From Kiloniellaceae bacterium (lineage in GTDB: Bacteria > Pseudomonadota > Alphaproteobacteria > Kiloniellales > Kiloniellaceae), in NCBI GenBank assembly GCA_009377535.1, contig WHTV01000007.1, positions 1,891 through 65,890 of the forward strand: 64,000 nucleotides of DNA. Direction: 5' to 3'. A program made the translations under genes and the position numbers. Numbering within the stretch: the stretch's first letter is position 1; the number at the start of each line of letters is the position of its first letter. Positions 1 to 14,127 of the stretch are shown here, piece by piece. The notes below the pieces were generated by a model. That model was given only the letters and a program-made list of their open reading frames with translations, ran no database searches and was not told where the DNA came from.

Positions 1-1
1 A

Positions 2-406
2 ACTGGCCGCCGCGGCCAGGACCTCGGCAGCCTGGTGGCCGACGACTCCTCCGCGCTCGAAGGCTGCCTCGGTGAAATGCTGAGGGCGCAGGGCGTGCCC
101 CAGGATCTGGTCTCGCAGGTCGTCGAGCAGCTGCGGTTCGATACCCTGGCGGCTCAGGGTTTAGTGCTCGCCCGACAGGCCGACCAGCGGGAGATCGATC
201 CGGAGATCGCGCCCCACATCGACCAGACTTTCAAGAAGGACACGACCTGCGAAGCGCAGCGCGTTCTCCTGAAGGCTTGGCGCATCCGCCGGGTCGCTGA
301 GCCGAAGAACGGCGACGCCCCGGAGACCGCCTATGCCGAGAAGATCTACAAGATCCGCCGGATCCTGGAGCAGATCAACCGCTCCGGCGTGGAATGCTTT
401 ACCTGA
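2..406 (+). CDS. hypothetical protein, 5'-truncated by the window edge
   Basis: Frame is open from base 2 to TGA at 404-406 with high-GC codon usage; no recognisable motif. Confidence 0.5.
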   Translation, partial: TGRRGQDLGSLVADDSSALEGCLGEMLRAQGVPQDLVSQVVEQLRFDTLAAQGLVLARQADQREIDPEIAPHIDQTFKKDTTCEAQRVLLKAWRIRRVAEPKNGDAPETAYAEKIYKIRRILEQINRSGVECFT

Positions 407-455
407 CCCGGAGGGCCCGCCGAAGAGGCCCCGCAATCACTGGGTGGAGACTGCA

Positions 456-848
456 ATGAGCAAGTTCTGGATGGCACTGCCGATCGCCGCGATAATGATC
501 GCCGTGATCGGGAACGACAATGAGCTGCTGGCCCAGACCGCCCGCATCCCGCCGCCGTGACCGGACGACAGCGACCTCTCCGCGCGCTACCTCGTCCAGG
601 GGGTCCGGTAGAGGCCGATCCCGGTCCTCGGCCGTGGCCATTGGGCCCGGAAGGCGGCCGGCAAGAAGGACGAGCGGCCGCCGCGCCTTGCCGTCACCGA
701 TTCTGGCGAACCGATTGTCATCCGTGGGAACCGGCTGCCCGGCCTGCCCGAGGCGGGTCAGGGAAGCGCAGCAACGTGCCAGGGAAAGGGAGGGCCGGCC
801 GAAGAAGCGCCTTCCACTCCATCGCCGAAGGGATTTCATCCAGCATAA
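456..848 (+). pseudogene. possible degraded exported-protein gene
   Basis: GGAG SD, then ATG 456 and signal-peptide-like MSKFWMALPIAAIMIAVIG; frame continues through in-frame stops TGA 558-560 and TAG 609-611 to TAA 846-848. Confidence 0.25.
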
Positions 849-1079
849 CGATGGCAGCCCGTCCTAATCCGGCTTGACTACTGCGCCACACGCAGAGGAG
901 GACTACTCGATCTTTCAATACTATCTTGATCAGAGCGGACTGCCTCTAACGCTGCTCTGGTGCAGCGAGTACAAAGGGGACTTTGCGCGGGTCTGCAGGG
1001 ATGCGCGCGAGAGGGCAAAAGCCGATTCTCGTCAACGCAAGCGAACGGCTTTGGGCCGTCCAGACAGGGGAGCTTCGGT

Positions 1080-2183
1080 CTAGTCCAGATTCAGCAGGTA
1101 GGCGGTGGAGCGGCCACCTGCCTCGCTCGGGCGCAGGGCGCCCAGCTCAATCAGCTCGTTGATGTCGCGTTGTGCGGTCGGTTGCGAGCACTTGCCGAGA
1201 GCAGCCCATTTCCTGGTCGTGATTTTGCCTTCGAAGCCATCGAGGAGGCGGTTCAGCACCTTGGTCTGGCGCTCGGAAAGGGCCTTGCCCTGCAAGTTCT
1301 GCCAGAAGCGCTGCTTGGCGAGGACCTGCTCGATCGTGGCCTCTGCTTCATCGATGGCTGCAACGAAACACTCGAGGTACCAGACGAGCCAGTCGGTGAT
1401 TTCGAGATCGTTCGACTGAGTACTTTCGAGGATCTCGTAATAGGCCTTTCGTTTGTTGCGGATGGCGCTCGACATGGAATAGAAGCGATGCGGGCTCGCT
1501 TCGGCCTGGGCCAGCGCCATGTCGGCCATGGCACGCGCCATGCGGCCGTTGCCATCATCGGTCGGATGGATGGTCACGTAATAGAGGTGCGCAATACCCG
1601 AGCGCAGGATGCCGTCAAGCCCGGCTGGCGGGGCGTTGAACCAGGCGAGGAAGCGATCCATTTCTGCGGGCAAGCGCTCGGCGGGCGGCGCCTCGTAATG
1701 CACCTTCTCGCGGCCCAGGGCGCCGGAGACCACCTGCATAGGGCCCTCTTTGTCCAGTCGCCAGCCTGCGACGGTGATTTTATGCATGCCGGAATAGCCG
1801 GTCGGGAAGAGAGCGACATGCCAGCCGAAGAGACGCTCGGCCGTCAGCGGCTGGTCATAGTTGTGCGTGGCATCGATCAGCATGTCGACGAGGCCTTCGA
1901 TCCGGCGGTCGTCCTTGCTGGCGCCGGCATAGGGAATACCAAGCCGGCGAGCGATGGAGGAGCGCACCGAATCTTCGTCGAGGTGTTCGCCTTCGATTTC
2001 CGATGTGCGCAGAGCATCCTGACTCAGGGTGCGCAGGCGCGCCTCGTCAGAGAGTGGCCGGATGACATTTCTCATCTGTCCAAGCACCTGGCCCTGGCGG
2101 CGGGCAGCCTCGGCCAGGTGGTCCAGGAGCCGGGCCCGGTCCCAGGTGAAATTCGGCCAGTTGTCGTGTTGCCAGATATACAA
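1080..2183 (-). CDS. Fic family protein (DUF4172 N-terminus, Fic domain, C-terminal wHTH)
   Basis: MYIWQHDNWPNFTWD N-terminus; Fic motif variant HPTDDGNGRMAR; C-terminal KCSQPTAQRDINEL HTH; TTG start with GAGGAG SD. Confidence 0.9.
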   Translation of the reverse strand: MYIWQHDNWPNFTWDRARLLDHLAEAARRQGQVLGQMRNVIRPLSDEARLRTLSQDALRTSEIEGEHLDEDSVRSSIARRLGIPYAGASKDDRRIEGLVDMLIDATHNYDQPLTAERLFGWHVALFPTGYSGMHKITVAGWRLDKEGPMQVVSGALGREKVHYEAPPAERLPAEMDRFLAWFNAPPAGLDGILRSGIAHLYYVTIHPTDDGNGRMARAMADMALAQAEASPHRFYSMSSAIRNKRKAYYEILESTQSNDLEITDWLVWYLECFVAAIDEAEATIEQVLAKQRFWQNLQGKALSERQTKVLNRLLDGFEGKITTRKWAALGKCSQPTAQRDINELIELGALRPSEAGGRSTAYLLNLD

Positions 2184-2190
2184 GGTTTGG

Positions 2191-2231
2191 TCTCCTCAGG
2201 GATGAGGAGAATCCTGACGATTTTCTCCTCA
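2191..2231 (-). promoter_or_regulatory. three TGAGGAGA/TCTCCTCA boxes upstream of the fic gene (operator or SD-sequestering hairpins)
   Basis: TCTCCTCA 2191-2198, TGAGGAGA 2203-2210, TCTCCTCA 2224-2231; the first is the SD of the fic gene. Confidence 0.5.
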
Positions 2232-2360
2232 CTTTCTGAAGAGAATATAGCGCATCCTGATGAGATTGGCAAACCACTCTAATCAAAAAATGATCAGAAT
2301 AAGGCCCTCAATCTCTTCACGCGCGCGCCTCCCTGCCTCCTGACGGCCGCCCTTCGCCTT

Positions 2361-2561
2361 ATGACAGGAAAAACCGGGGTCTTTGAGGACGCGGGGGCGC
2401 TGGCCGATCAGCTGCCGGCCGCGGCCGGCGAGCGCGGACCGCAGGCGCCGGCAACCCTGGCCGCGCGGCGTCCCTGGCCGACGGCCTGGATCGAGGCGCT
2501 GGCGGGCTTCTTCCGCGAGCCGCGCACGCCGCAGGCGCGCGCAGCGCCCGAGCCCCGTTGA
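2361..2561 (+). CDS. hypothetical small protein
   Basis: 66-aa ORF with host-like codon usage; no motif. Confidence 0.25.
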   Translation: MTGKTGVFEDAGALADQLPAAAGERGPQAPATLAARRPWPTAWIEALAGFFREPRTPQARAAPEPR

Positions 2562-2742
2562 CTCACCACTACCTGGCCCTTCGCCGAGGGCGAACCGCAC
2601 CCTCGGGAGCGCTCAAACCTAAGGTGCCAAGTCTTGCATGCGAACATATCCGGTCCAAGGTGGCCGAAAGTTGGACGGTCCGGCAGATCAGCGGATAAAT
2701 CGTCCAACTCGTTCTTCTTTTGTCCCTGGAGGAAATACGCGC

Positions 2743-2755
2743 TAAACACTTGATT
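2743..2755 (-). promoter_or_regulatory. IHF-consensus site
   Basis: Minus strand reads AATCAAGTGTTTA, an exact WATCAANNNNTTR match, 5 bp outside the att duplication. Confidence 0.5.
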
Positions 2756-2760
2756 TCAAA

Positions 2761-2817
2761 TGGTGCCCCTGGCCTGACTCGAACAGGCACGCCCTTGCGG
2801 GCAACAGATTTTGAGTC
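2761..2817 (-). repeat. att site: displaced 57-bp copy of the tRNA-Leu 3' half
   Basis: Matches 12864-12920 at 55/57 positions, from the anticodon arm to CCA. Confidence 0.95.
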
Positions 2818-2894
2818 AGTAGAAATACGTTTCTAGGTATTTCGCCCGTTTTCGCTGATGCTCCATTTTCCCATATAATTCAGGGATATATGCG

Positions 2895-2923
2895 TTGCAT
2901 ACCGCGAATGGGATTCGTAGACT
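2895..2923 (+). promoter_or_regulatory. putative sigma70 promoter of the integrase
   Basis: TTGCAT (2895-2900), 17 bp, TAGACT (2918-2923); the spacer holds a CGAAT-ggg-ATTCG palindrome. Confidence 0.45.
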
Positions 2924-2945
2924 TTCGCCCTGATTCGCTGTTTCG

Positions 2946-2967
2946 TGCTTACCTATTGCTTACCCGG
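2946..2967 (+). repeat. integrase arm-type site (TGCTTACC tandem), left arm
   Basis: TGCTTACCTATTGCTTACCCGG, identical to 12787-12808. Confidence 0.7.
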
Positions 2968-2986
2968 ACCGGAGTAACGTCCTCAA

Positions 2987-4192
2987 ATGAGACTTAGCCT
3001 AACCCGCATTAATGCCCTTTCCGCTGGCGCCAAGGAGTTTATCGAGTGGGATGACGAACTGCCCGGCTTTGGCGTTCGCGTGAAGCCCAGTGGGGTCAAG
3101 AGCTACGTTCTCCAATACCGGAATGCCGATGGGCTGTCCCGGCGCAAGACCATCGGCCGACATGGCGTCCAGACGGTCGAGGAAGCGCGCAAGGCCGCGA
3201 GAAAACTCAAGGCAGCGGTGGAACAAGGCGAGGACCCGGCCGCCGATTCCCGAGCGCGAAGGAATGCCCCCACTGTGGAGGCCCTGTGCGAGAGGTATTA
3301 CGAAGAGCACGCCAAGGTCCACAAGAAGCCCCGCAGCGCGAAGGAGGACCGCCGGCTTATCGACAAGCGGATCAAGCCGGCGATCGGCACCATGAAGGCT
3401 GCAGCGGTCACCCAGAATGACGTTACGAAGCTTCATCTGGCTTTGCGGAAGACGCCCTACGAGGCCAACCGCGTACTGGCCCTCCTCTCGAAGATGTTCA
3501 AGCTGGCGGAGGTATGGGGAATGCGCCCGATGGGCTCCAATCCCGTCTTGCACGTGCAGCGTTATCCGGAAAGAAAACGCGAAGGCTGCCTTGACCCAGA
3601 AGAGGTTGGCCGGCTTGACGCGGTGCTCAGCAAGGCGGAGCAGACCCGCGAGATTCACCCCACCTTGATCGCTGGCATCCGGCTCTTGTTCTATACCGGT
3701 TGCCGTCTGTCCGAGTTGGTTTCGATTCGGTGGGCCTGGGTCGATTTGTCGGCCGCTTCAGTCCGTCTGCCGGACAGCAAGACCGGCCCCAAAACAGTTC
3801 ATCTTGGAAATGAGGCGCTGCCCATCCTCACAAATCTTCCCAGGCAATCGGACTACGTTTTGCCGGCAATCAAGAACCCTGAGGCACCTCTGAGCGGCGC
3901 TACACTCGATCATGCTTGGCGGCGAGTCCGTAGCAAGGCAGGCCTTCAGGGTTACCGCCTCCACGATCTGCGCCATACCTTCGCATCCTGGGGAGTCAAC
4001 GGCGGCGAGAGCCTGCCCATTATCGGCGCGTTGCTCGGTCACCGCGAAATGCAGACTACTCAGCGCTATGCCCACCTTTCGCAATCGCCCCTCAAGAAGG
4101 CCGCAGATGACATCAACGCCCGCATGCGGGCGGCGATTGAAGCTGCGGAGAATCGTCAAAAGGCGGCGACAATAGCCCCAGCAATTGACTGA
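2987..4192 (+). CDS. tyrosine recombinase/integrase with N-terminal arm-binding domain
   Basis: FGVRVKPSGVKSY arm-binding domain; catalytic GCRLSE, HDLRHTFAS, LLGH, QRY. Confidence 0.97.
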   Translation: MRLSLTRINALSAGAKEFIEWDDELPGFGVRVKPSGVKSYVLQYRNADGLSRRKTIGRHGVQTVEEARKAARKLKAAVEQGEDPAADSRARRNAPTVEALCERYYEEHAKVHKKPRSAKEDRRLIDKRIKPAIGTMKAAAVTQNDVTKLHLALRKTPYEANRVLALLSKMFKLAEVWGMRPMGSNPVLHVQRYPERKREGCLDPEEVGRLDAVLSKAEQTREIHPTLIAGIRLLFYTGCRLSELVSIRWAWVDLSAASVRLPDSKTGPKTVHLGNEALPILTNLPRQSDYVLPAIKNPEAPLSGATLDHAWRRVRSKAGLQGYRLHDLRHTFASWGVNGGESLPIIGALLGHREMQTTQRYAHLSQSPLKKAADDINARMRAAIEAAENRQKAATIAPAID

Positions 4193-4374
4193 AGGTGGGC
4201 CGAGTTGAGGGCAAGACGTCCGGCTGCACCTGGTTTCTGGCTATATCCGCGCCCAAACCGGAAAGCGGTCGTCTGCTATCATCCAAACGCGAATCGCTGT
4301 TTGCCTAAGTCGTCGGGCACGCGCGCCCACAATGCTCAAGTACTCGTTGGCCAGAGTGAAGCGGCACTTTGCAT

Positions 4375-7300
4375 TCAATTCGTTTCCTCTGCTATGGCCC
4401 TAAGTTTAACGACGTATTCTGCCCCAAGCGGCGCTCCAACTGCTTCCGAAGTTGCGAGGAGAAGCTTTGCGATAAAATTTTGATCATCATTGGGCATCGC
4501 CAAAACTGCGTTGATGGCGGGCACGGTCTCACGTGGCCGGGAAAGACGAAAAGACTCTTTGGTAATTATTCTCTTCCATCCTGCCCGCTGCCACCTGGCG
4601 AGATAGGACGTCAGAAGGCGCTTGAAGTGGGAATAGTTGATCCGTTCGAAGAAGCGCAGTCCGATCACCCAGAATTCGTACGGTTCTATGTGCTGTTTCC
4701 CAAGAGTCCTTTTGATAATCTCAACAATTAATTGGTCGAGTTGGCCGAGAGGAGATGGCCTTCCGTGCCAATGACTAAAGACTGCCGCGCTGAGCTGCGC
4801 GGATTCCATTTCGCTGCCGAAAGCGGTTTCGAGATCGGCCATAGCCTCTGGACGGCCGGCCAGAACAGCTCGAATTCCAAAAGCAAGAATGGCATCAGTT
4901 ACCACTTGTTCGACCGCAGGATCGATAGGCGCTCCCTTTTCTAGCGCAGGCACCTGCCCTCTTTCGGGAGACAGCGGATCAAAGCGCGTCTTCAGCCGTT
5001 CCGCATTCTTGGAAATGTGTGCTGCACTCTCGACATACTTAATGAAGTGGGTCGGAAACCGATCGGAATCTAAGCTTTCAATATCCGCTTGCAAAACCCT
5101 TGAGCGAAGCTCGAATTCCATAATAGGAATTGGGCCGTGCAACAGTTGACCGCTGAGACCCCTCGCAATCCCCTCATCGAGGCCTGATCCCGCTTCGGTT
5201 ATTGCCAACAAGTACCAACTCAGATCAATGGGGCCGAGCGGCAGTTCCCGAATAGCTGGCAAGGGATCAGGATTACTGCAGGTCCCAGGCTGCATCGTAA
5301 TCGGATCCCCACCAATTTTAACGTCTATCCCTTCGATGCGCGACTGCGCCCATAGCACAGCATGACGAATGACGCGGTGGCAGTAGGCAGCGCGCAGTGT
5401 TGTGTCTGCATCGACAGCCGCCAAGGCCTCTAGGGCTTCCGCAAGCCCTCTCAACGCTCGGCCCACGCCCCCTGCCTCTAGGGCAGCCACCGCAGCATCC
5501 GCACGAAGTCCGACCGTCATAACACGCATGTCATCAGTTTCGGCGAGGCTGCCCGCGCTGTGCGCTTCGAGAAACCATTTCTCGGCTTGCGGCCACTCGT
5601 CACATTTTGCTGCACTAATTGCCGCCTCTCGCAACGCAAAAGCGCGTTCAATCGGGTTGTCGTGACCAAGTTGATCGGCTATCCCGCGAAGAATCCCAAG
5701 CGCCATCTCGTGCTGATCGTGCCGCCAATATACCTTGGCACGAGCGCGAGAAAGGATCGGGTCATCCCCTAGAACCGCCTTTGCATCATCAAGAATCGCC
5801 AGCGCCCCTTTCGCATCATCTAGATATTCATCATGCATGACTGCTCGCGCCACCCAGCATTGCACGGTGAGGGGGCGAATGCCCCAATCGCCCGTCTTCT
5901 TCGCCATGCGCTGATAGCGGACCGCGGCATCCGACGCATCTAAGTCCCCCCTACGCTCCTGCGAGACCCACGGCCCGTTGATCGATAGGGAATAGTCGGA
6001 GAAACTCTTGTCGATAGGTGTTAGCCAGATCGGCCGCTCGCTTGCATCGAGTTTATCGAGTTCGTCAATGATGTATTCCAACCGATCGACGGAAGCGAGA
6101 CCAGCACTGCCTATGCCAAACAGCGCACCGTAGAACTCCATGCGATTCCCGTCAGGCGAACTTTCGATATTGGCTTTTAGACCACTCAGGAATTGTTCAG
6201 CTTCGACCATGCTCCTAAAGCGACGAAGAAGGTTGATCCAGCCATCAAGGTAATTTGCAACACCCATCGTGCCGAGGATGGCCATAAGCGCCATTGATTC
6301 TGAGCCATTCTTCAACTCGCCCGGTGGCAAACTGCTTATCTCATTAAGCAGCGCCGCCACAACCTCGGCCGCCCTTTCCCCTTCACCCGCCGCGGCAACC
6401 ACCTTAAATTGCGCGGTCCTAAGAAATATCGAGGCGGCAAGGTTTTCTGGGAAGATCGGAGCATCAGTCCGGAAGTGGTGAAGAAGGATTAGCTGCTCAG
6501 CAAGAAGCTCAATTGTGCGAACTCCTGCTGTCAACACAGCTTGAGCGACCATGGTCAAACAGTATGGCGATTTTCCGGCGATCGCGTGCATCAGTATTGC
6601 ATCGATGTCTACAGCATCAATCCCGCTCTTCCTAAGCATCTGGAGCGCGATTTGTTCGTGGATACGTGTCTGCTCATCGGCGACCAGCACTTCACGCCCG
6701 CACCCGCTAGCCAGCGGTGAGACGCGGTAAAGATCCCTACCGATTGCTTCAATCCACGGACCAACAAGTTGATCCAAGGATTCGCCCGGGCGGGATAACT
6801 GCGGCGACAATGCACCAATTACAATCGCGAGTGACCGATTGAAGCGCCCAATGGCAATGCTTAATCGGTAGAGGAGAGTCCGCGTTTCATCTGGGAGCGC
6901 GGCGATCAAGTCTCGTCGCGCTTCATCGCGGGCTGTGTCGATGTCATCGGAAGTTATGCCGCGCCCGATTACATCACCGATCTTCTCGTCTGGCCACCCG
7001 CGCGCAGCCATCCCACTTGCAAAGGCATGCGTAAGTTGGGGGTGACCACATGCACCTGCCAAGTAGGCGAGCCGCCCCCATTTGTTGGGGTCCCCCCCAT
7101 AGATGCTAACAAGCGCGTGAGCTTCTTCTTCCGTAAAGTAAGGGCAATCGACTACGCATCGATGATCGAGCCCAATGGCCGACAATGCCTTTGAGGATGG
7201 GGGCCGATAACACGTTACAAGCGCTACACAGTCCCGACGGCGCAATGCCTCCATCACTCGACTGAGCGACAACGCAACTCCCGGATCGTCAAGTTGATTT

Positions 7301-8469
7301 AAATCTTCAAGGATAAATACCGTATATTTGATCCCGCCTATTCGGGCGAATAAGGCATCAAGGCGGCTTCGTGCTTCAGCAGCCTTGGCATCCCGAAAGT
7401 CCGCTATGACAAACGCGCCAGCGAGCGCGCGGGCCACCGCCCGCGAAACGCTTGACTTTCCAAGTCCGCTGCCACCTACGATAACGCCAGCACCAAATTG
7501 CAGGAGAGCGTCAGCCGCCGACGACTCGACGGCACTTCGGGGTACTACCGCTTTCGGGGCGGGAAGCGTGTCGCTCCTGATGAGCCAGCCAATCTCATCG
7601 CCGGGAAGAATATTGCCGATGCCTGTGGCGCCGGCAAGCGGTCTAACTAATCCTGATGCGAGTTGCCCAAGTGCCTCGACCATGGCACGCGGCATCATGA
7701 GACTGGTTGCCGCATCTATTGCTTCGTAGAGTTCGGCGCGCGTAAGAACGCGATCCCGGGGCGTTCTGATTACGCTTTTTTTCAACACCCTATAAACCAA
7801 TACATCGGCAATCCGCCGCGCCTCTGGAGCGGGAACATTGAATTTGTCTCGGCCTACGACGATTAGATGCTGTTCCAGCTCTTCGCGAAGTGTTGAAAAA
7901 TCGGGCTTACCACAAGCCCAATGTATCTTCATGAGGAGGTCGTGGCGGAGCGCATCGTCATTTCGAGCCTTGACGAACTCTCGTACCGCTTCGGGGAACT
8001 TCTCACTTTCCAACACTGCGCGGATTGGCGCAGCGTCCGCTCCAGCGGCCGCTTTCCGCCAATATTCCAACCCGGCCATCCCTGACAGGCGGTCAGCGGT
8101 CGCTTTCTCAATCGCTATTTCAGATGTGGTGAAGTACCGAAGCTCAACCCGGAGGCCAGGATTACGCTCGACAAGGTCGACAAACGCGGTGACCGCATCG
8201 CGGATGCTCCCGCTATTCAAGGTAACTGATCCAGACCTTTCTGTGTCCTTAACTTGAACGGCGTTGAGCACGCCTTCGGCTACAGTCGCATAGTCTTCGG
8301 CGACCTCCAGAAAGAGACGTCCCTTGTCGTCTAGATCGAGCCATGCAAGGGCCGCAGCCACAACCTGATACGAATACCCTCTTAGCGAATCGATCGCCTG
8401 GCGAGCAGCATCGCCCTCGGGGAAAGGTTCCGGAGTACTACCTGAGGTAAAGAGATCATCGATTGTCAT
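4375..8469 (-). CDS. Cap4/DUF4297-like nuclease - STAND NTPase - helical/TPR repeat protein (Avs-like candidate defence protein)
   Basis: N-terminal RGYSYQ...EVAED...QVK nuclease signature; Walker A GGSGLGKS (~aa 331); Walker B VFILED; STAND GxP motif GHP (~aa 474); long Ala/Leu-rich helical C-terminus. Confidence 0.75.
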   Translation of the reverse strand: MTIDDLFTSGSTPEPFPEGDAARQAIDSLRGYSYQVVAAALAWLDLDDKGRLFLEVAEDYATVAEGVLNAVQVKDTERSGSVTLNSGSIRDAVTAFVDLVERNPGLRVELRYFTTSEIAIEKATADRLSGMAGLEYWRKAAAGADAAPIRAVLESEKFPEAVREFVKARNDDALRHDLLMKIHWACGKPDFSTLREELEQHLIVVGRDKFNVPAPEARRIADVLVYRVLKKSVIRTPRDRVLTRAELYEAIDAATSLMMPRAMVEALGQLASGLVRPLAGATGIGNILPGDEIGWLIRSDTLPAPKAVVPRSAVESSAADALLQFGAGVIVGGSGLGKSSVSRAVARALAGAFVIADFRDAKAAEARSRLDALFARIGGIKYTVFILEDLNQLDDPGVALSLSRVMEALRRRDCVALVTCYRPPSSKALSAIGLDHRCVVDCPYFTEEEAHALVSIYGGDPNKWGRLAYLAGACGHPQLTHAFASGMAARGWPDEKIGDVIGRGITSDDIDTARDEARRDLIAALPDETRTLLYRLSIAIGRFNRSLAIVIGALSPQLSRPGESLDQLVGPWIEAIGRDLYRVSPLASGCGREVLVADEQTRIHEQIALQMLRKSGIDAVDIDAILMHAIAGKSPYCLTMVAQAVLTAGVRTIELLAEQLILLHHFRTDAPIFPENLAASIFLRTAQFKVVAAAGEGERAAEVVAALLNEISSLPPGELKNGSESMALMAILGTMGVANYLDGWINLLRRFRSMVEAEQFLSGLKANIESSPDGNRMEFYGALFGIGSAGLASVDRLEYIIDELDKLDASERPIWLTPIDKSFSDYSLSINGPWVSQERRGDLDASDAAVRYQRMAKKTGDWGIRPLTVQCWVARAVMHDEYLDDAKGALAILDDAKAVLGDDPILSRARAKVYWRHDQHEMALGILRGIADQLGHDNPIERAFALREAAISAAKCDEWPQAEKWFLEAHSAGSLAETDDMRVMTVGLRADAAVAALEAGGVGRALRGLAEALEALAAVDADTTLRAAYCHRVIRHAVLWAQSRIEGIDVKIGGDPITMQPGTCSNPDPLPAIRELPLGPIDLSWYLLAITEAGSGLDEGIARGLSGQLLHGPIPIMEFELRSRVLQADIESLDSDRFPTHFIKYVESAAHISKNAERLKTRFDPLSPERGQVPALEKGAPIDPAVEQVVTDAILAFGIRAVLAGRPEAMADLETAFGSEMESAQLSAAVFSHWHGRPSPLGQLDQLIVEIIKRTLGKQHIEPYEFWVIGLRFFERINYSHFKRLLTSYLARWQRAGWKRIITKESFRLSRPRETVPAINAVLAMPNDDQNFIAKLLLATSEAVGAPLGAEYVVKLRAIAEETN

Positions 8470-8486
8470 TTGTACCTAGAGTGCCA

Positions 8487-8948
8487 TCAAATGGCACTTC
8501 TGTCTTCTTCCTCCCTCTGAAACCCCTGAACGGCCAGCACGGCGCGCGCTGCCTCTTTGTCGGCTTGCTCGCGCGATAGTCCGCCCTCGAATTCCACAAT
8601 TGCGGCTCGCTCCTCGAATTCCGCAATCAGATCGCTTTCCGCAGGCGTAACAGGTGTGCGCGGTGTAATAGGTCCCCCACTATCAAGGATTTTCAAGGGC
8701 TCTGCGCCGCTTGGGGCCGTTACACCGCCCGGGTCGGGCGGTGTGCAAGGGTGTGACGAAACGGCGTATTTGCCGGCTTCCGCAACACCTTGCACACCCT
8801 GCGACGGGCCGCGTGTAACCGGCGCCAACCGCACGGATGGGGCTGAGAGGCCCGGGTGCAAGCCGGCCGTTACACCTTGCACACCCGCTACACCCTGGCT
8901 CTTGGGGGCGGGCGCGGCCCAACGCGCGAAGAGGTCACGCATTGGCAT
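8487..8948 (-). CDS. hypothetical protein overlapping ori-like repeats; C-terminal FEERAAIVEFEGGLSR motif
   Basis: Overlaps the DUF927 gene stop; EERAAIxExxGGLSR-type motifs are typically seen downstream of satellite primases (recalled, not searched). Confidence 0.6.
   Translation of the reverse strand: MPMRDLFARWAAPAPKSQGVAGVQGVTAGLHPGLSAPSVRLAPVTRGPSQGVQGVAEAGKYAVSSHPCTPPDPGGVTAPSGAEPLKILDSGGPITPRTPVTPAESDLIAEFEERAAIVEFEGGLSREQADKEAARAVLAVQGFQREEEDRSAI
8645..8895. repeat. iteron-like ACACC/GGTGT repeat cluster, putative replication origin
   Basis: ACACCTTGCACACCC at 8785-8799 and 8872-8886; inverted GGTGTGCAAGGGTGT at 8740-8754; GTTACACC at 8719 and 8869; GTGTAAC at 8813; IHF-like TATCAAGGATTTT at 8681. 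Confidence 0.55.
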
Positions 8949-11379
8949 CGCCCTCCAAGATTCGGCCGGACACCCGGTAGACCCTCACCGGCCCGTCCGA
9001 GCCCGGCAACCTCACTGGTGTGGTCGATTTGCCCGCGGAATCGGGCAGGAGATACCCCCTGTTGCGCAGCACGCGCGCGACGGATTGGGGGTCGAGCCCG
9101 GCCGCAATCTCCCCTTTGAAGACGGGCGGGAAGATCAAGAATTCACTGCCGTCCGTAGTCTGGCGGCTGAAGCCGGCGCGATTGATCGTCGGTCGCCCAG
9201 GGTCCGCGCCGTCGAGCTTGGTGAACCGGCTTTCACCGTGACGGGCCAGGAAGTCGCGGACCCGCTCAAGGGCCTCTCTCTCTTCCGCTGGGAGCACTCC
9301 GCCGCGCTGCTCCAGCCAGTCCCTAAAGCACCGCTCAGCCGCCCCAGTCGACTCTCCATCCGACCAGGGCAAGATCCCCATAACCGTTGCCAGTTCGCCG
9401 GCGGCGGCAACCAGCCCGAAGCGCTGCGCTACGCGCCTAACCTGGCCGTCGGCGTTGTTGGGGCAGATGTTCGAAACAAAGCGCTCCACGGCCTCTCGAA
9501 CCTTCTCAGCTATCGCGTCGCTGTCATTGGCGACCTTCGCAACGAAAGCCCGGATCGGTGTGCCGTAGAAGCTTCCGGAGGCCTGCTGAAGGCGATTTGC
9601 GAGGGCAGCGGGCCCTTCCATGCCATGAAGGTCTTCGAACAGCCCCAGCCCAGCCCCGGCGTCCGCCTGGAGATCAACCAGCCGCGTTTCCTGTCCCGCC
9701 TGGATACGCTTTCCGGCTTCATTCAGCTTGTCGGCCAGCGACAGCTCCCCGGTGGAAAGAAACAGCAGCTGCCAGCGCGCCGGTGGGCGCGCCATCCCGT
9801 CTTTGCGCGCTCGGCTCTTGCCTTCGCCGTTGGCCAGCATATAGGCGGCTGCACCGGCTTCGCGCCCGTCAACCTGCCCCAACTCGTCCAAGCACAGGAG
9901 GGCATGATTGTGAGCCTGGGCCGTGCCTTCCAAGCCGTTGGCGGTTGCCCGCCAAGTGCGGATATAGGGTTTGCTGCCGCCGCCCCACATGCCGCCGGCA
10001 ATCCGCAAGGCGGTTGTCTTGCCAACACTTGAGGGGCCGCGTAGATGGAAGCCGCCGCCCTCTTGCGAAACGAACGGCAGCAGCGGCGCAGCAAGCGCTA
10101 CCGCCGCCGCAAAGGCCAAGCGGGAGTTGCCGACACAATAGGACCCGATTTCACGTTGCCAGCCAGCGAGGTCGCCCGCCGGCACGAAGGCGTGATCGAG
10201 GGGACTCTCGGTCTGGAGCCGAACCGGCTCGCCCCCCGCGCCATACGTCCGGTCAGGCAGGACATAGCAGCCGCCATGCCAGCCAATCCGGGGCACACAT
10301 CGCAATCGGGCGGGCGGCGCGGTCTGAGCGATGTAGTCGTGCAGCCGGGTCTTGCTCTTGGCGCCGCCGGAAAGCGACAGACCCAGCGCCAACAGCGTTT
10401 CGCGATAGCTCGAACCGTCGCCAGCAAGCATCGCCATCGGCATTGCCCATTCGTGGGCCGCGCCATCGCGGTCAATGACGCGCAACAGCCTGCCCCACTG
10501 CTGCCCCGATCCGTCCCGAGTGTCCGCCAGCACCTCCAGGCGCGAGCAAACCGGCTTCCAATCCATATCGCCGTCGTCGGTTTCCTCGCCGTACTCGACC
10601 CCGCGGGTCGTCAGCTTGAAAGGCCAGCAAACCGAAGCCGCCGGATCGAGGAACTCGAGCAGCCGATCTTCCTGGCCGGCGGCCTCGACCAGCGTTGCAA
10701 GCTGATCCGCCTGCCAGTCGACCGGCAGCGGGTCAGCCAGGTCCCATTTCTCCGGGAAGTCGGCTGGCACCGATACGATACCTATGGAAAGCGCGCCGGC
10801 CGCCGCCGCAAGGCGGGCAACCGTCTTGGCGTAGGCCTGCCCCTCATGGTCATTGTCCGGCCAGATGACCACCGTTCGCCCTGCCAGCGGTGACCAGTCG
10901 GCCTTGTCGGCCGCTTTGGCGCCGTTGGGCGACGTTGTGCTCACGTAGGTGGGGAATAGGGCCGCAGCGGCATCAGCCGCCTTCTCGCCTTCGACGACCA
11001 GCACCGGCACGTCCGGACGTGCCGCGAGTCGGTCAAGGCCGTAGAGAGGACGGGGAGTCAGCCAACCCTTCGAGCGCCATTCCTGGTGCCCGCCGGGCGC
11101 CTTACAATACGTAAGCGGTCGGAATTCCTTGCCGGCGGGAAGGTCAACCCGCCCTACGTAACCTAACGTAAGGCCCGCAGCGTCGCGGTAGGTGTACATA
11201 GCTACGTAACGTAAGGTCTGCCCACCTACGTAAGCATGAAGGGGCGGCTCTGGCGCTTCGGCGGGGACGGGCATAACAGGCTGCCAGTCCTCCATCTTCG
11301 ACCCATTGCCCTTAGATACGTCGGCAGCGCCCAAGTCCTGGCTCGGCGCTGCCGGCTCAAACATCGCCTCACGATCCAT
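8935..11379 (-). CDS. Toprim primase - DUF927 helicase fusion
   Basis: Toprim VLVVEGEKAAD and VVIWPDNDHEG; Walker A GPSSVGKTT; DUF927 WRATANGLEG and LCLDEL. Confidence 0.9.
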   Translation of the reverse strand: MDREAMFEPAAPSQDLGAADVSKGNGSKMEDWQPVMPVPAEAPEPPLHAYVGGQTLRYVAMYTYRDAAGLTLGYVGRVDLPAGKEFRPLTYCKAPGGHQEWRSKGWLTPRPLYGLDRLAARPDVPVLVVEGEKAADAAAALFPTYVSTTSPNGAKAADKADWSPLAGRTVVIWPDNDHEGQAYAKTVARLAAAAGALSIGIVSVPADFPEKWDLADPLPVDWQADQLATLVEAAGQEDRLLEFLDPAASVCWPFKLTTRGVEYGEETDDGDMDWKPVCSRLEVLADTRDGSGQQWGRLLRVIDRDGAAHEWAMPMAMLAGDGSSYRETLLALGLSLSGGAKSKTRLHDYIAQTAPPARLRCVPRIGWHGGCYVLPDRTYGAGGEPVRLQTESPLDHAFVPAGDLAGWQREIGSYCVGNSRLAFAAAVALAAPLLPFVSQEGGGFHLRGPSSVGKTTALRIAGGMWGGGSKPYIRTWRATANGLEGTAQAHNHALLCLDELGQVDGREAGAAAYMLANGEGKSRARKDGMARPPARWQLLFLSTGELSLADKLNEAGKRIQAGQETRLVDLQADAGAGLGLFEDLHGMEGPAALANRLQQASGSFYGTPIRAFVAKVANDSDAIAEKVREAVERFVSNICPNNADGQVRRVAQRFGLVAAAGELATVMGILPWSDGESTGAAERCFRDWLEQRGGVLPAEEREALERVRDFLARHGESRFTKLDGADPGRPTINRAGFSRQTTDGSEFLIFPPVFKGEIAAGLDPQSVARVLRNRGYLLPDSAGKSTTPVRLPGSDGPVRVYRVSGRILEGDANA

Positions 11380-11692
11380 GCCGCACCCCCAGCATGTCGG
11401 CCAGCCGCCTAGCGGCCTCCCCCTGTCGAAGGCCTGCGAGATAGGCTGCGAGCGAGATCACGTCACCGCCGGCATCGCCCGTGGCGAAATCCGCCCATTT
11501 CCCAGAGGTCAGATTGATCTTGAACGATCCTGGCCTTTGGTCGGTCCTGTTGGGGTTCCGGGCAACCCACTCATTGCCTAGCAGGCGCCCATCCGGCAGC
11601 CACCGCGCCACTAGCTCCGGGAGCCGCTGAAGGGCGGCTCGATTGATTTCCGGGAAGTTGGGGCCCGGATTTTCGCTGCCTCGCTTAGACAT
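11369..11692 (-). CDS. stand-alone primase N-terminal (zinc-ribbon-like) domain protein
   Basis: NPNRTDQRPGSFKINLTSGKWADFATGDAGGDVISL; start ATG 11692 overlaps the alpA stop and its stop overlaps the DUF927 start. Confidence 0.75.
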   Translation of the reverse strand: MSKRGSENPGPNFPEINRAALQRLPELVARWLPDGRLLGNEWVARNPNRTDQRPGSFKINLTSGKWADFATGDAGGDVISLAAYLAGLRQGEAARRLADMLGVRHGS

Positions 11693-11936
11693 GCTCGGAA
11701 CCCTGGTCAGAGGTAGTCCGGCGCAGGTTAGTCTCAGCCCAGGCAATGAGGTCGCGGCGACGATAGCGGACTGCCTTGCCACCGATTTTGACGTAGTGTG
11801 GCCCCCCGCCGCTCACGCGCCAGCCCTGCAGTGCGCGGACCGAAAAGCCAATGAAGGTTGACGCCTCGCTTTCGGTCAGCAGCCGATCCAAGTAGTCCGG
11901 ATCACGTGCCAGGTTTTCGGAGATATGTTGGAACAT
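11685..11936 (-). CDS. AlpA/Xis-like HTH protein (recombination directionality factor/regulator)
   Basis: LLTESEASTFIGFSVRALQGWRVSGGGPHYVKIGGKAVRYRRRDL, a typical HTH_17/AlpA pattern. Confidence 0.88.
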   Translation of the reverse strand: MFQHISENLARDPDYLDRLLTESEASTFIGFSVRALQGWRVSGGGPHYVKIGGKAVRYRRRDLIAWAETNLRRTTSDQGSEHV

Positions 11937-11937
11937 G

Positions 11938-12012
11938 GTGTTCGCCCTTCTGCTTGCTGTTGCGATGGGCGAACGCTAGGCGGCAAAACCGCCAACAAAT
12001 ATTCCAACAAAT
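11938..12012 (-). promoter_or_regulatory. alpA leader: CCAACAAAT direct repeats and RBS-covering hairpin
   Basis: CCAACAAAT at 11992-12000 and 12004-12012; GTTCGCCC...GGGCGAAC inverted repeat overlapping the RBS. Confidence 0.4.
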
Positions 12013-12022
12013 TGGATCGGGT

Positions 12023-12781
12023 TTATTGTTTCTTGGAGGCTCGGTCAGCCTTGAAAGAGCCTGACACAACCTGCCGGATTGTCTCATCCGACAAGTCTTG
12101 AAAGACCCCGGCCCGATCCGGATAGGCCTCACAAAGATATGCGCGGATTTCAGGATACAGCCGCTTCATCGGCGCTTCGAAATCGACCTTCCCGGCAGCC
12201 TTCAGCGCCTCATAGGCGGCGAAGACTTCCGATTTGACCGAGGGGCGCCCAACCGGCCTGGGCTCGCTCCTGTCGCCCCCTGTCGGTAGGAGCAGCTCGT
12301 CGACTGCCTTGGGCTCGATAAGCCGCACCGAGACGAACTCCAATCCGCTGCCGGACACCTTGCAGCCATCCCAGTCGATCCTGCCACCCCAAACGTCCGA
12401 TGGAATCAAGGCAGGCGCGTCAGCGACGTGGCGGGGGACAACAAACCCGAGGGCAAGGACCTCGCCGGAACGAATGCCGGCGACCGTATCGGCCTGCATG
12501 CGTTCCCACGCCGCTCGCAACTTGGCGTAGTAGTCTTGATTTGGCTTCATCGCCGCAAAAATTGCGAGGAGGCCGGTGCTGATATCCGGGGCAGGTTCCG
12601 TTGGCATGCTGAAGCCGGGAGGCTTGGCCGCGCACAGCTCGCGATAGGTGCGGATGCGAGCCGGCTTGGCAAAGCGTCCGGGACTGGCCTGTAATGTCGC
12701 GGCAGCCTGCCAAAGCGATAGCCGGGCATCAGGCGTGAGGCGTCGAACGAAATCAGGGGAGAAGGCGGCGGACTTCGCCAA
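12023..12781 (-). CDS. hypothetical protein of the element (possible regulator)
   Basis: 252-aa ORF between the att arm and alpA; C-terminal GRPS...SDETIRQVV HTH-like segment. Confidence 0.7.
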   Translation of the reverse strand: MAKSAAFSPDFVRRLTPDARLSLWQAAATLQASPGRFAKPARIRTYRELCAAKPPGFSMPTEPAPDISTGLLAIFAAMKPNQDYYAKLRAAWERMQADTVAGIRSGEVLALGFVVPRHVADAPALIPSDVWGGRIDWDGCKVSGSGLEFVSVRLIEPKAVDELLLPTGGDRSEPRPVGRPSVKSEVFAAYEALKAAGKVDFEAPMKRLYPEIRAYLCEAYPDRAGVFQDLSDETIRQVVSGSFKADRASKKQ

Positions 12782-12786
12782 TTCGC

Positions 12787-12823
12787 TGCTTACCTATTGC
12801 TTACCCGGCGCCTTCTGCTTACC
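12787..12823 (+). repeat. integrase arm-type sites (three TGCTTACC), right arm
   Basis: TGCTTACC at 12787, 12798 and 12816. Confidence 0.7.
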
Positions 12824-12863
12824 TGCGCTGCGCCACTCAAAATTCGCAAGCCATTGTTTTTAT

Positions 12864-12950
12864 TGGTGCCCCTGGCCTGACTCGAACAGGCACTCCCTTG
12901 CGGGAAACAGATTTTGAGTCTGTCGCGTCTACCAATTCCGCCACAGGGGC
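12864..12950 (-). tRNA. tRNA-Leu(CAA)
   Basis: GCCCCTG acceptor stem, ACAGA-CTCAAAA-TCTGT anticodon arm, long variable arm TCCC-GCAA-GGGA, GCCTG-TTCGAGT-CAGGC T arm, encoded CCA; 87 nt. Confidence 0.97.
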
Positions 12951-13593: not shown

Positions 13594-14127
13594 GTGATGA
13601 AGAATGAACATGATTTTGACAGGGACGAAATCACTCACCGAAATGTGAAGGCCGTGGTCAAGTGGTTCAACGTGACCAAGGGCTTCGGCTTCGTACAGTT
13701 GAGCGAAGGCGCCCCCGACGCCTTCCTGCACATCTCCGTAGTGGAAAGAACCGGCAACCGCGAACTGTATGAAGGCACTGCCATCGTGTGCGACCTGATG
13801 CAGGGCCGCAAAGGATTGCAGGTGGCCGAGATCCACAGCGTGGAAGCGGGCGCCATGCCGGCGTTTTCCTCCGGCCACAGCCCTCACGGCGGACCAGGCG
13901 GACAGAGCGGCGGCGGCGCCGAGGTGATCGAAGGGACCGTGAAGTTCTTCAACACAGAGAAGGGCTTCGGCTTCGTGATCCCGGATAACGGCGGCAAGGA
14001 CATCTTCGTCTCAGGGCGCACCCTGGAACGTTTTGGCTTGCCGGCGCTGCAGCCGAACCAGCGTGTGCGGCTGCATACCCGCATGGGCCAGAAGGGACCG
14101 ATGGCCGAGCAGGTCGAATTGCTCTGA
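13594..14127 (+). CDS. cold-shock protein with two CSD domains
   Basis: VKWFNVTKGFGF...DAFLH and VKFFNTEKGFGF...DIFVS RNP motifs joined by a Gly-rich linker. Confidence 0.93.
   Translation: MMKNEHDFDRDEITHRNVKAVVKWFNVTKGFGFVQLSEGAPDAFLHISVVERTGNRELYEGTAIVCDLMQGRKGLQVAEIHSVEAGAMPAFSSGHSPHGGPGGQSGGGAEVIEGTVKFFNTEKGFGFVIPDNGGKDIFVSGRTLERFGLPALQPNQRVRLHTRMGQKGPMAEQVELL

Follow-up and report, generated by a model that had tools for sequence, protein, structure and literature searches.

The tRNA-Leu(CAA) locus of a Kiloniellaceae bacterium raises the question of how an island that encodes its own integrase and replicase, and in which no gene for a particle or for conjugation was recognised, could move between hosts. 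The locus lies in a stretch of 64,000 nucleotides (assembly GCA_009377535.1, contig WHTV01000007.1, positions 1,891 to 65,890 of the forward strand), which is the window analysed here, and holds an element of about 10.1 kb that had originally been predicted, from the letters alone, to be a complete capsid-less satellite. We propose that this element is an integrative island, intact and able to replicate itself, from an alphaproteobacterial family not described before, and that it may function like the minimal capsid-less satellites and cargo islands by hijacking virions, a reading for which we see the chances as evenly balanced.

The element is a real insertion of 10,103 bp with defined ends in tRNA-Leu(CAA). 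A direct repeat of 67 nt (2754-2820 and 12857-12923; 91% identity) recurs at a spacing of 10,103 nt; it begins at the CCA end of the tRNA and reaches the 5' strand of its anticodon stem. This is the sole tRNA that ARAGORN detects in the first 20 kb of the window. Within the 60-nt part of the repeat that lies inside the tRNA, the two copies are 95% identical. The attachment (att) repeats described as intact in the original prediction are, therefore, present but not identical: the copies differ at three positions within the tRNA part, and two of these mismatches form a compensatory pair in the stem of the variable arm, which reads GCCC..GGGC in the distal copy versus TCCC..GGGA in the working tRNA. 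The GCCC..GGGC allele is the native tRNA allele of the congeners G010 and G008, and the native tRNA of G010, the closest congener, is identical to the distal copy at 58 of 58 positions. Thus, the working tRNA carries a 3' half supplied by the element, as expected for a crossover in the anticodon loop. The comparison of alleles shows that insertion occurred by recombination in this loop, with the tRNA being rebuilt from the element's own 3' half. Moreover, in the congeners G008, G018 and G004, the sequence corresponding to window positions 2623-2760 joins the 3' end of tRNA-Leu(CAA) directly and the element is absent, while the primase gene of the element had no match in any of 18 congeners at E<=1e-30. 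Because the element is missing at the congener site, and because repeats of this kind also delimit its sister elements, the observation goes beyond chance.

The gene content of the element (Table 1) was assigned from gene calls and four libraries (Pfam, PHROGs, NCBIfam and PADLOC). It bore out the original prediction of an intact element with an integrase, AlpA and primase core and with no capsid or relaxase genes; the predicted inventory was also right about the core genes and the cargo, whereas its single hypothetical gene turned out to be two conserved ones that encode proteins of 153 and 252 aa. A protein search returned three relatives (L036, L037 and L045; primase identities in Table 1) on contigs with the same six-gene backbone. 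The search that the original prediction had suggested, for this backbone with other cargo at tRNA-Leu in relatives, was, thus, positive: the backbone occurs with other cargo in L036 and its integrated counterpart L050, in L037 and in L045, and the L050 element is located at tRNA-Leu(CAA).

In the recombination module, the integrase retains, on inspection of its translation, the R...HxxR...Y residues. Across the 64 kb of the window there are five copies of the octamer TGCTTACC, all of them within the arms of the element, and five or more copies were obtained in 0 of 100 shuffles; these five flanking arm sites fit the Arm-DNA-bind_3 domain of the integrase. The layout of three plus two arm sites is kept in L036 and in L037, even though the sequence at the end of L037 resembles tRNA-Lys(UUU). 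The gene for the 252-aa protein is co-directional with alpA and lies 87 nt upstream of it. A profile search with this family retrieved 1029 representative proteins at E<=1e-3, corresponding to about 1000 clusters at 50% identity, and none of the representatives has a Pfam family; similarly, an AF2 model of the 252-aa protein (pLDDT 93) had no fold match in the PDB or BFVD. Its position alone leads us to propose that the 252-aa protein may be an accessory factor of the Int/AlpA excision complex. An open reading frame (ORF) of 76 aa (11902-12132) was rejected as a gene, as it overlaps both the 252-aa gene and alpA and is not called in the sister elements.

The replication module forms the remainder of the backbone. 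From alpA through the primase N-domain gene and the primase-helicase gene to the 153-aa gene, all genes overlap or abut in one co-directional string, and a promoter and terminator scan gave no excess over shuffled expectation. DUF927, Toprim and DUF6371 are the only Pfam matches of the primase-helicase, and the start used by its homologues lies near 11364, giving a protein of 809 aa. The primase is encoded by two genes; the large protein fits positions 134-301 of the fused 759-aa model PRK07078, while the separate N-terminal domain fits positions 20-112. The N-domain gene is likely 107 aa long with a start near 11692, overlapping the alpA stop; the homologues called in L036, L037, L045 and L050 measure 107-114 aa. 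We rejected the split as a pseudogene or a frameshift error: most relatives keep it, though in a different frame, and the two parts are fused in other cases, from which we conclude that it is a natural two-gene arrangement. The 153-aa protein has no family in Pfam, PHROGs, NCBIfam or PADLOC; its C-terminal motif also follows the primase in five other loci (L014, L017, L018, L025 and L026).

Just past the primase, within the 5' half of the 153-aa gene, lies a cluster of iterons that we regard as a candidate replication origin. The 87-nt spacing of its direct copies recurs in L036 (4009 and 4096) and L037 (3999 and 4086), where the iterons have an element-specific, slightly different sequence that is identical among each element's own copies. 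A kept spacing together with an element-specific iteron is the pattern expected of an origin that is read by its cognate initiator.

In contrast to the backbone, the DNA separating the integrase gene from the 153-aa gene is exchanged among the sister elements. DNA homology of the backbone to L036, L037 and L050 ends at about 4104-4140 and resumes at about 8560-8572, and the GC content of the slot is 0.53-0.58 versus 0.65-0.67 in the backbone (host about 0.65). The window cargo protein contains an N-terminal LmuA/Cap4-like nuclease region, a P-loop NTPase region with weak matches to Rad50-type (residues 312-450) and AAA (residues 330-423) families, and a long C-terminal region; it is a candidate Avs/STAND-like anti-phage protein. 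No homologue of it is present in the sister elements L036, L037 and L045. At the same position, L036 carries an AAA_21/DUF4435 ATPase and an Mrr-like nuclease; L037, an element of 9.7 kb at the tRNA-Lys(UUU)-like site, carries a UvrD helicase, DarT and an ADP-ribosylglycohydrolase (DarG); and L045 carries an Mrr restriction enzyme and an 848-aa protein. Altogether, the comparison of the sister elements shows one slot, between the gene string and the inward-facing integrase, that holds a different predicted anti-phage cargo in each of them. Short contigs about 85% alike to the window cargo occur in two soil and sediment metagenomes (X2 and X3). Finally, the island is, in our estimate, very probably whole and competent for excision and replication.

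Table 1. Features of the element, with the percent identity of each product to its counterpart in the sister elements L036, L037 and L045
Feature	Position (nt)	Strand	Evidence or location	L036	L037	L045
Distal att copy: displaced native tRNA-Leu(CAA) 3' half, anticodon loop to CCA	2761-2820	-	Direct repeat			
Two arm-type sites TGCTTACC	2946, 2957 (span 2946-2964)	+	Immediately upstream of int			
P4-type tyrosine integrase, 401 aa, inward-facing	2987-4192	+	Pfam Arm-DNA-bind_3 9e-15, Phage_integrase 9e-24 (PF00589 9.4e-24); phrog_1 2e-64	79	69	not on contig
Cargo slot, between int stop and 153-aa gene stop	4193-8486		Break in backbone DNA homology			
Cargo gene, 1364 aa	4375-8469	-	PADLOC LmuA 2.3e-11 over residues 23-251; weak P-loop matches			
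153-aa backbone protein	8487-8948	-	Conserved C-terminal motif	59	54	not called
Candidate replication origin, iterons GGTGTGCAAGGTGT	8653-8885		Direct copies 8785, 8872 (87 nt apart); inverted copies 8653, 8740			
Toprim + DUF927 primase-helicase, ORF 814 aa	8935-11379	-	DUF927 3.9e-80; Toprim; phrog_1139 primase 2.9e-97; SCCmec Cch1 helicase (NCBIfam) 3.6e-12	85	76	63
Separate primase N-terminal domain, ORF 137 aa	11369-11782	-	Part of fused model PRK07078	79	74	63
AlpA/Xis-like HTH_17 protein, 83 aa	11685-11936	-	Pfam HTH_17 (PF12728) 5.4e-9; phrog_66 excisionase/regulator 9e-7	89	87	78
Conserved 252-aa protein, first gene after attL	12023-12781	-	Family profile; no Pfam family	56	50	34
Three arm-type sites TGCTTACC	12787, 12798, 12816 (span 12787-12823)	+	Next to tRNA			
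attL, element-supplied tRNA 3' part	12864 to ~12916	-	Repeat spans 12857-12923			
tRNA-Leu(CAA), intact	12864-12950	-	ARAGORN; Rfam tRNA 58.7 bits			

The recombination module also occurs beyond the close sister elements. Of 400 other alphaproteobacterial species sampled, 11 have a member of the 252-aa family in their genomes. Wherever the flank of the locus suffices, the family gene adjoins an alpA homologue, and a P4-type integrase that is 36-46% identical to the window integrase lies within the same att-bounded island. Seven of these wider-family elements have repeats of the tRNA 3' half of 39-51 nt, which are perfect in six of them and 96% identical in the seventh (L067), and their sizes range from 5.0 to 10.9 kb. 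Their replicons vary and comprise DUF3987 primase-helicases (used by the L052 island), Toprim_2/AAA_25 proteins, inovirus-type G2P, Rep_trans, and DUF736 with an unknown protein. At four loci, unrelated replicons lie beside the same Int/252-aa/AlpA module: a G2P-type rolling-circle initiator (L071:12397-13482), Rep_trans (L069:3848-5053), Toprim_2/AAA_25 with a C-terminal helix-turn-helix (L070:3738-5282) and DUF3987 (L052:2377-4581). The cargo is mostly defence (McrBC, Abi_2, type I and IIG restriction-modification, and a Prok-E2/ThiF/JAB protein), and one element carries metal resistance instead, in the form of a cation efflux protein and a cytochrome c. None of the wider-family elements examined has capsid, terminase or relaxase genes. 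By contrast, a further capsid-less element of about 9.8 kb (L038, a Logan contig of 9,792 nt with a 30-nt terminal overlap; primase 59% identical) lacks the 252-aa family; its integrase gene is co-oriented with the HTH_17 and pri genes, and it holds three unknown cargo genes.

Following the primase leads to elements of a different kind. Relatives at 45-53% identity belong to elements of about 16 kb, integrated at tRNA genes, with a portal, a protease-capsid fusion, an HNH protein and TerL, in Azospirillum oleiclasticum (L018, which is the IMG/VR entry L035), Pseudoroseomonas aerophila (L013) and a Novosphingobium metagenome-assembled genome (MAG; L020). These elements are located at tRNA-Ser or tRNA-Arg and carry an integrase and a split DUF927 primase, and no tail genes were seen in the stretches of them that were read; they are candidate capsid-forming satellites in Alphaproteobacteria, of a layout resembling phage-inducible chromosomal islands that form capsids (cfPICIs). 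Among deposited phage records, DUF927 was found both in phiAH14b, already described as a satellite (PMC4936722), and in a PICI-like record of 10 kb from Pseudomonas. The presence of DUF927 in the cfPICI-like elements and in phiAH14b indicates that satellites make use of the lineage from which the replication module comes. In the window family, a defence slot takes the place of the morphogenesis block.

What the element lacks is central to how it might be transferred. Capsid, portal, terminase, psu/sid and relaxase families had no match among its ORFs in the four libraries, and no relaxase, coupling protein or type IV secretion system (T4SS) family was found among the eight ORFs in Pfam, NCBIfam or PHROGs. 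A hidden relaxase or packaging gene, which would have placed the element in a known class, was likewise not detected by the four libraries, in the 153-aa, 252-aa and 76-aa ORFs, or by fold search; the two conserved hypothetical proteins have no capsid-morphogenesis or small-terminase fold or family, and the ESM Atlas returned only unnamed clusters for them. From the lack of capsid, terminase, relaxase and T4SS genes in the element we infer that it hijacks virions. We see it as an even chance that transfer depends on phage particles. In the mechanism that we envisage, AlpA, probably with the 252-aa protein, would drive excision, and the primase-helicase would fire the iteron origin on the excised circle. 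The element would spread by hijacking the virions of an incoming, not a resident, phage, probably being packaged as concatemers without capsid remodelling, while the cargo would meanwhile protect the host. Packaging of capsid-less satellites as concatemers is established (PMC10803314, PMC9618062).

The helper search covered the HK97 capsid, the portal and four large-terminase families (PF05065, PF04860, PF20441, PF03237, PF03354 and PF05876). None was found in this genome (91% complete, 317 contigs), while control genomes, including Caulobacter, were detected. With no phage structural gene in the genome, a helper, if any, would come from outside, as is the case for PICMIs (phage-inducible chromosomal minimalist islands) and PICI-like elements (PLEs). 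The same result speaks against mobilisation by a gene transfer agent (GTA) of the host, which the original prediction had entertained. Many Alphaproteobacteria carry RcGTA-like clusters, and this general fact is all that favours a GTA; an HK97-type capsid gene is present in only three of the 18 congeners, arguing that the genus sample has no conserved GTA cluster, and the random DNA that an RcGTA-type particle takes up amounts to about 4 kb, which is less than the 10.1-kb element. We consider a GTA helper close to negligible in probability.

Several observations weigh against the virion-hijacking interpretation. No phage structural gene was found in the genome, as described, and no packaging signal or gene (terS, cos or Rpp-like) was identified in the element; moreover, the only DNA that the element shares with the rest of the genome, in a search for cos or pac mimicry, is the tRNA repeats. 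Neither IMG/VR nor a set of 50,697 phage records yielded a member of the 252-aa family. Among the sequencing runs listed, none was near-identical to the element, and a circular joint was not present in Logan contigs from four metagenomes, which held distant fragments 80-95% alike. A fixed element length was dropped as a sign of packaging, as three close members span 9.56-10.10 kb and the wider family 5.0-10.9 kb. Vesicles are a documented route of transfer for similar elements (10.1101/2020.12.28.424599). Finally, the L036 element is integrated in a Kiloniellaceae MAG (GCA_054682135.1; L050) between tRNA-Leu(CAA) and folE, with perfect 56-nt repeats 9,561 nt apart, and the backbone is 76-80% identical to that of the L050 element while the chromosomal flanks of the two genomes are 78-82% identical; equal divergence of backbone and flanks also fits a long vertical residence with replacement of the cargo.

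Many of these points would be accounted for if the element were a replicative integrative defence island and not a satellite, moving in extracellular vesicles, through natural transformation, or through an unrecognised oriT that allows conjugative mobilisation in trans, a possibility to which we assign a substantial minority of our confidence. This would be the lifestyle of cargo-type tycheposons and of 'phage defence elements', and the absence of a packaging gene from the element and of phage structural genes from the genome, the absence of 252-aa relatives from viral collections and the one family member with non-defence cargo all agree with it. [quoted passage not shown]

The equal divergence of backbone and flanks could also point to a decayed cfPICI-like satellite or prophage remnant that lost its capsid module, became fixed in the chromosome and is inherited vertically, and the portal, capsid and TerL genes that distant primase relatives have where the element has its cargo are in line with such a history. 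However, each of the six backbone genes is intact and conserved across four elements, the arm sites and iterons are intact, and the att repeats are perfect in the L050 element and perfect or nearly so in the seven further members. Similarly, the absence of the primase from 18 congeners, the location of L037 at a different tRNA and the tRNA-proximal position of the element, in front of older island material, disagree with this reading. Decay is, in our judgement, quite improbable.

The att-to-att Logan contigs L036, L037 and L038 were rejected as proof of excised circles, as an integrated copy bounded by repeats gives an identical contig and, in addition, L050 has the L036 element in integrated form. 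The samples from which the relatives derive are sediment and soil metagenomes.

The surroundings of the element suggest that more than one island has used this site. To its left (window 1-2753 and a further 1,890 nt upstream, contig C295) lie a Fic/DOC gene (1080-2183, minus strand) and unknown ORFs; this DNA has the look of another island, older and at least 4.65 kb long, in which no integrase was seen. In the source genome, contig C110 (L043, genome G000) opens, at positions 1-63, with a third copy of the 3' half of the tRNA, its start falling exactly within the anticodon loop. Next come folE and genes for an SDR and a HATPase, and the same folE/SDR/HATPase flank adjoins tRNA-Leu(CAA) in eight congeners and in L050. 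The source genome probably contains a tandem array at tRNA-Leu(CAA), with a mixture of strains in the MAG as the alternative. Extra partial copies of tRNA-Leu(CAA) are also present in the congeners G005 (C10:330819-330881, 39 kb from the intact gene) and G016 (C1:765030-765096, 1.3 kb from the intact gene), indicating that this tRNA is a recurrent integration hotspot in the genus. Past the tRNA, a 38-nt repeat (13657-13694 and 13939-13976) corresponds to two adjacent segments that code for cold-shock domains, and the same cold-shock-domain gene flanks the tRNA in L050.

With clear ends, arm sites, a candidate origin and a single slot, the element is a natural test bed for genes of excision, replication and spread. 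The slot between the 153-aa gene and the integrase of family members is a source of candidate defence systems, and the 252-aa family offers a search handle for alphaproteobacterial islands that would be missed by the current models for PICIs, PICMIs, P4, cfPICIs and PLEs. If dependence on phage were true, minimal satellites would extend to soil and sediment Alphaproteobacteria. As a tentative and rather doubtful extension, the Int, 252-aa and AlpA module with interchangeable replicons and an anti-phage slot might define a widespread, unnamed family of alphaproteobacterial minimal satellites, in which the 252-aa protein would be the general counterpart of IOLG and concatemers would be packaged by incoming virulent phages without a packaging gene of the element's own.

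Among known systems, the PICMIs of Vibrionaceae are similar to the element in small size, in the core of integrase, AlpA (HTH_17) and primase, in a variable defence slot, in the lack of capsid-remodelling and packaging genes, and in an unknown gene between int and alpA, which is iolg in PICMIs and the 252-aa family gene here. PICMI iolg overlaps int by ATGA and is needed for excision (PMC10803314); in the co-oriented members L069 (2684-2687) and L071 (16627-16630), the 252-aa family gene likewise overlaps the integrase stop by ATGA, a likeness that is positional only. The published PICMI model consists of an integrase (PF00589, PF00239 or PF07508), AlpA (PF05930 or PF12728), a DUF3987 (PF13148) or DUF5906 (PF19263) primase and a mandatory Fis (PF02954) (PMC10803314). 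The element has the integrase (PF00589 9.4e-24) and AlpA (PF12728 5.4e-9); however, its primase is of the DUF927/Toprim/DUF6371 type and its site is tRNA-Leu(CAA) and not fis, so that the PICMI-type label of the original prediction does not hold. It also differs in its size of 10 kb versus 6 kb, in an integrase that is convergent with the replication string and in its alphaproteobacterial host.

The PICI-like label fares no better. Gram-negative PICIs have an int, alpA and pri core with an origin downstream of pri (PMC10111431), and the element shares this core, the position of its candidate origin past pri and a similar size (PICI median 9.5 kb). In contrast to PICIs, it has no capsid-morphogenesis or terS gene and its integrase is not co-oriented with alpA-pri; thus, it contains three of the five core components (int, regulator, primase-replicase, capsid morphogenesis and terS) of which a PICI, as defined for SatelliteFinder, has at least four (PMC10085698). 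Similarly, it is not a cfPICI, as it has no capsid, portal, head-tail connector or terminase of its own; cfPICI-type genes occur in a cfPICI layout (PMC10085698) in the distant relatives L013, L018/L035 and L020, with which it has the primase lineage in common. No match to the P4-like components psu, delta, sid, epsilon, alpha-type primase or CI RNA was found in PHROGs, Pfam or Rfam, and Rfam gave no C4 or isrK match for P4-type regulatory RNAs. The relaxase, coupling protein and T4SS of integrative and conjugative or mobilisable elements are lacking as well. Staphylococcal cassette chromosomes mec (SCCmec) share a DUF927-type helicase (Cch1 match 3.6e-12) and the character of a non-conjugative integrative element but have no AlpA and no Toprim fusion. 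SCC elements use serine recombinases and the orfX site and are found in Firmicutes.

Two further groups come close in organisation. VEIMEs are virion-borne elements that are, like the element described here, capsid-less, with an integrase, a primase/helicase, AlpA and defence-type genes; they were reported in Alphaproteobacteria among other hosts (PMC9618062), so that the original statement, which placed the described minimal satellites mainly in Gammaproteobacteria and Firmicutes, is no longer current. VEIMEs are, however, defined by recovery as concatemers from marine virions, while the element is known integrated or as att-to-att contigs, and its one IMG/VR relative is distant and capsid-bearing. 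Tycheposons have an inward-facing tyrosine integrase at one end, a small replication module at the other and cargo between, as well as partial tRNA repeats with more island material piling up distal to the element at the same tRNA (10.1101/2020.12.28.424599). The organisation of the element agrees with this layout definition; tycheposons have been described in Prochlorococcus and other marine oligotrophs, and membership is tied to a lineage-specific integrase clade and hallmark profiles. In total, minimal capsid-less integrative replicons with defence cargo are already known from PICMIs, VEIMEs, tycheposons and phage defence elements, and what the present element adds to them is this family and the protein that marks it, its occurrence across Alphaproteobacteria in settings other than marine plankton, and a clean series of cargo swaps.

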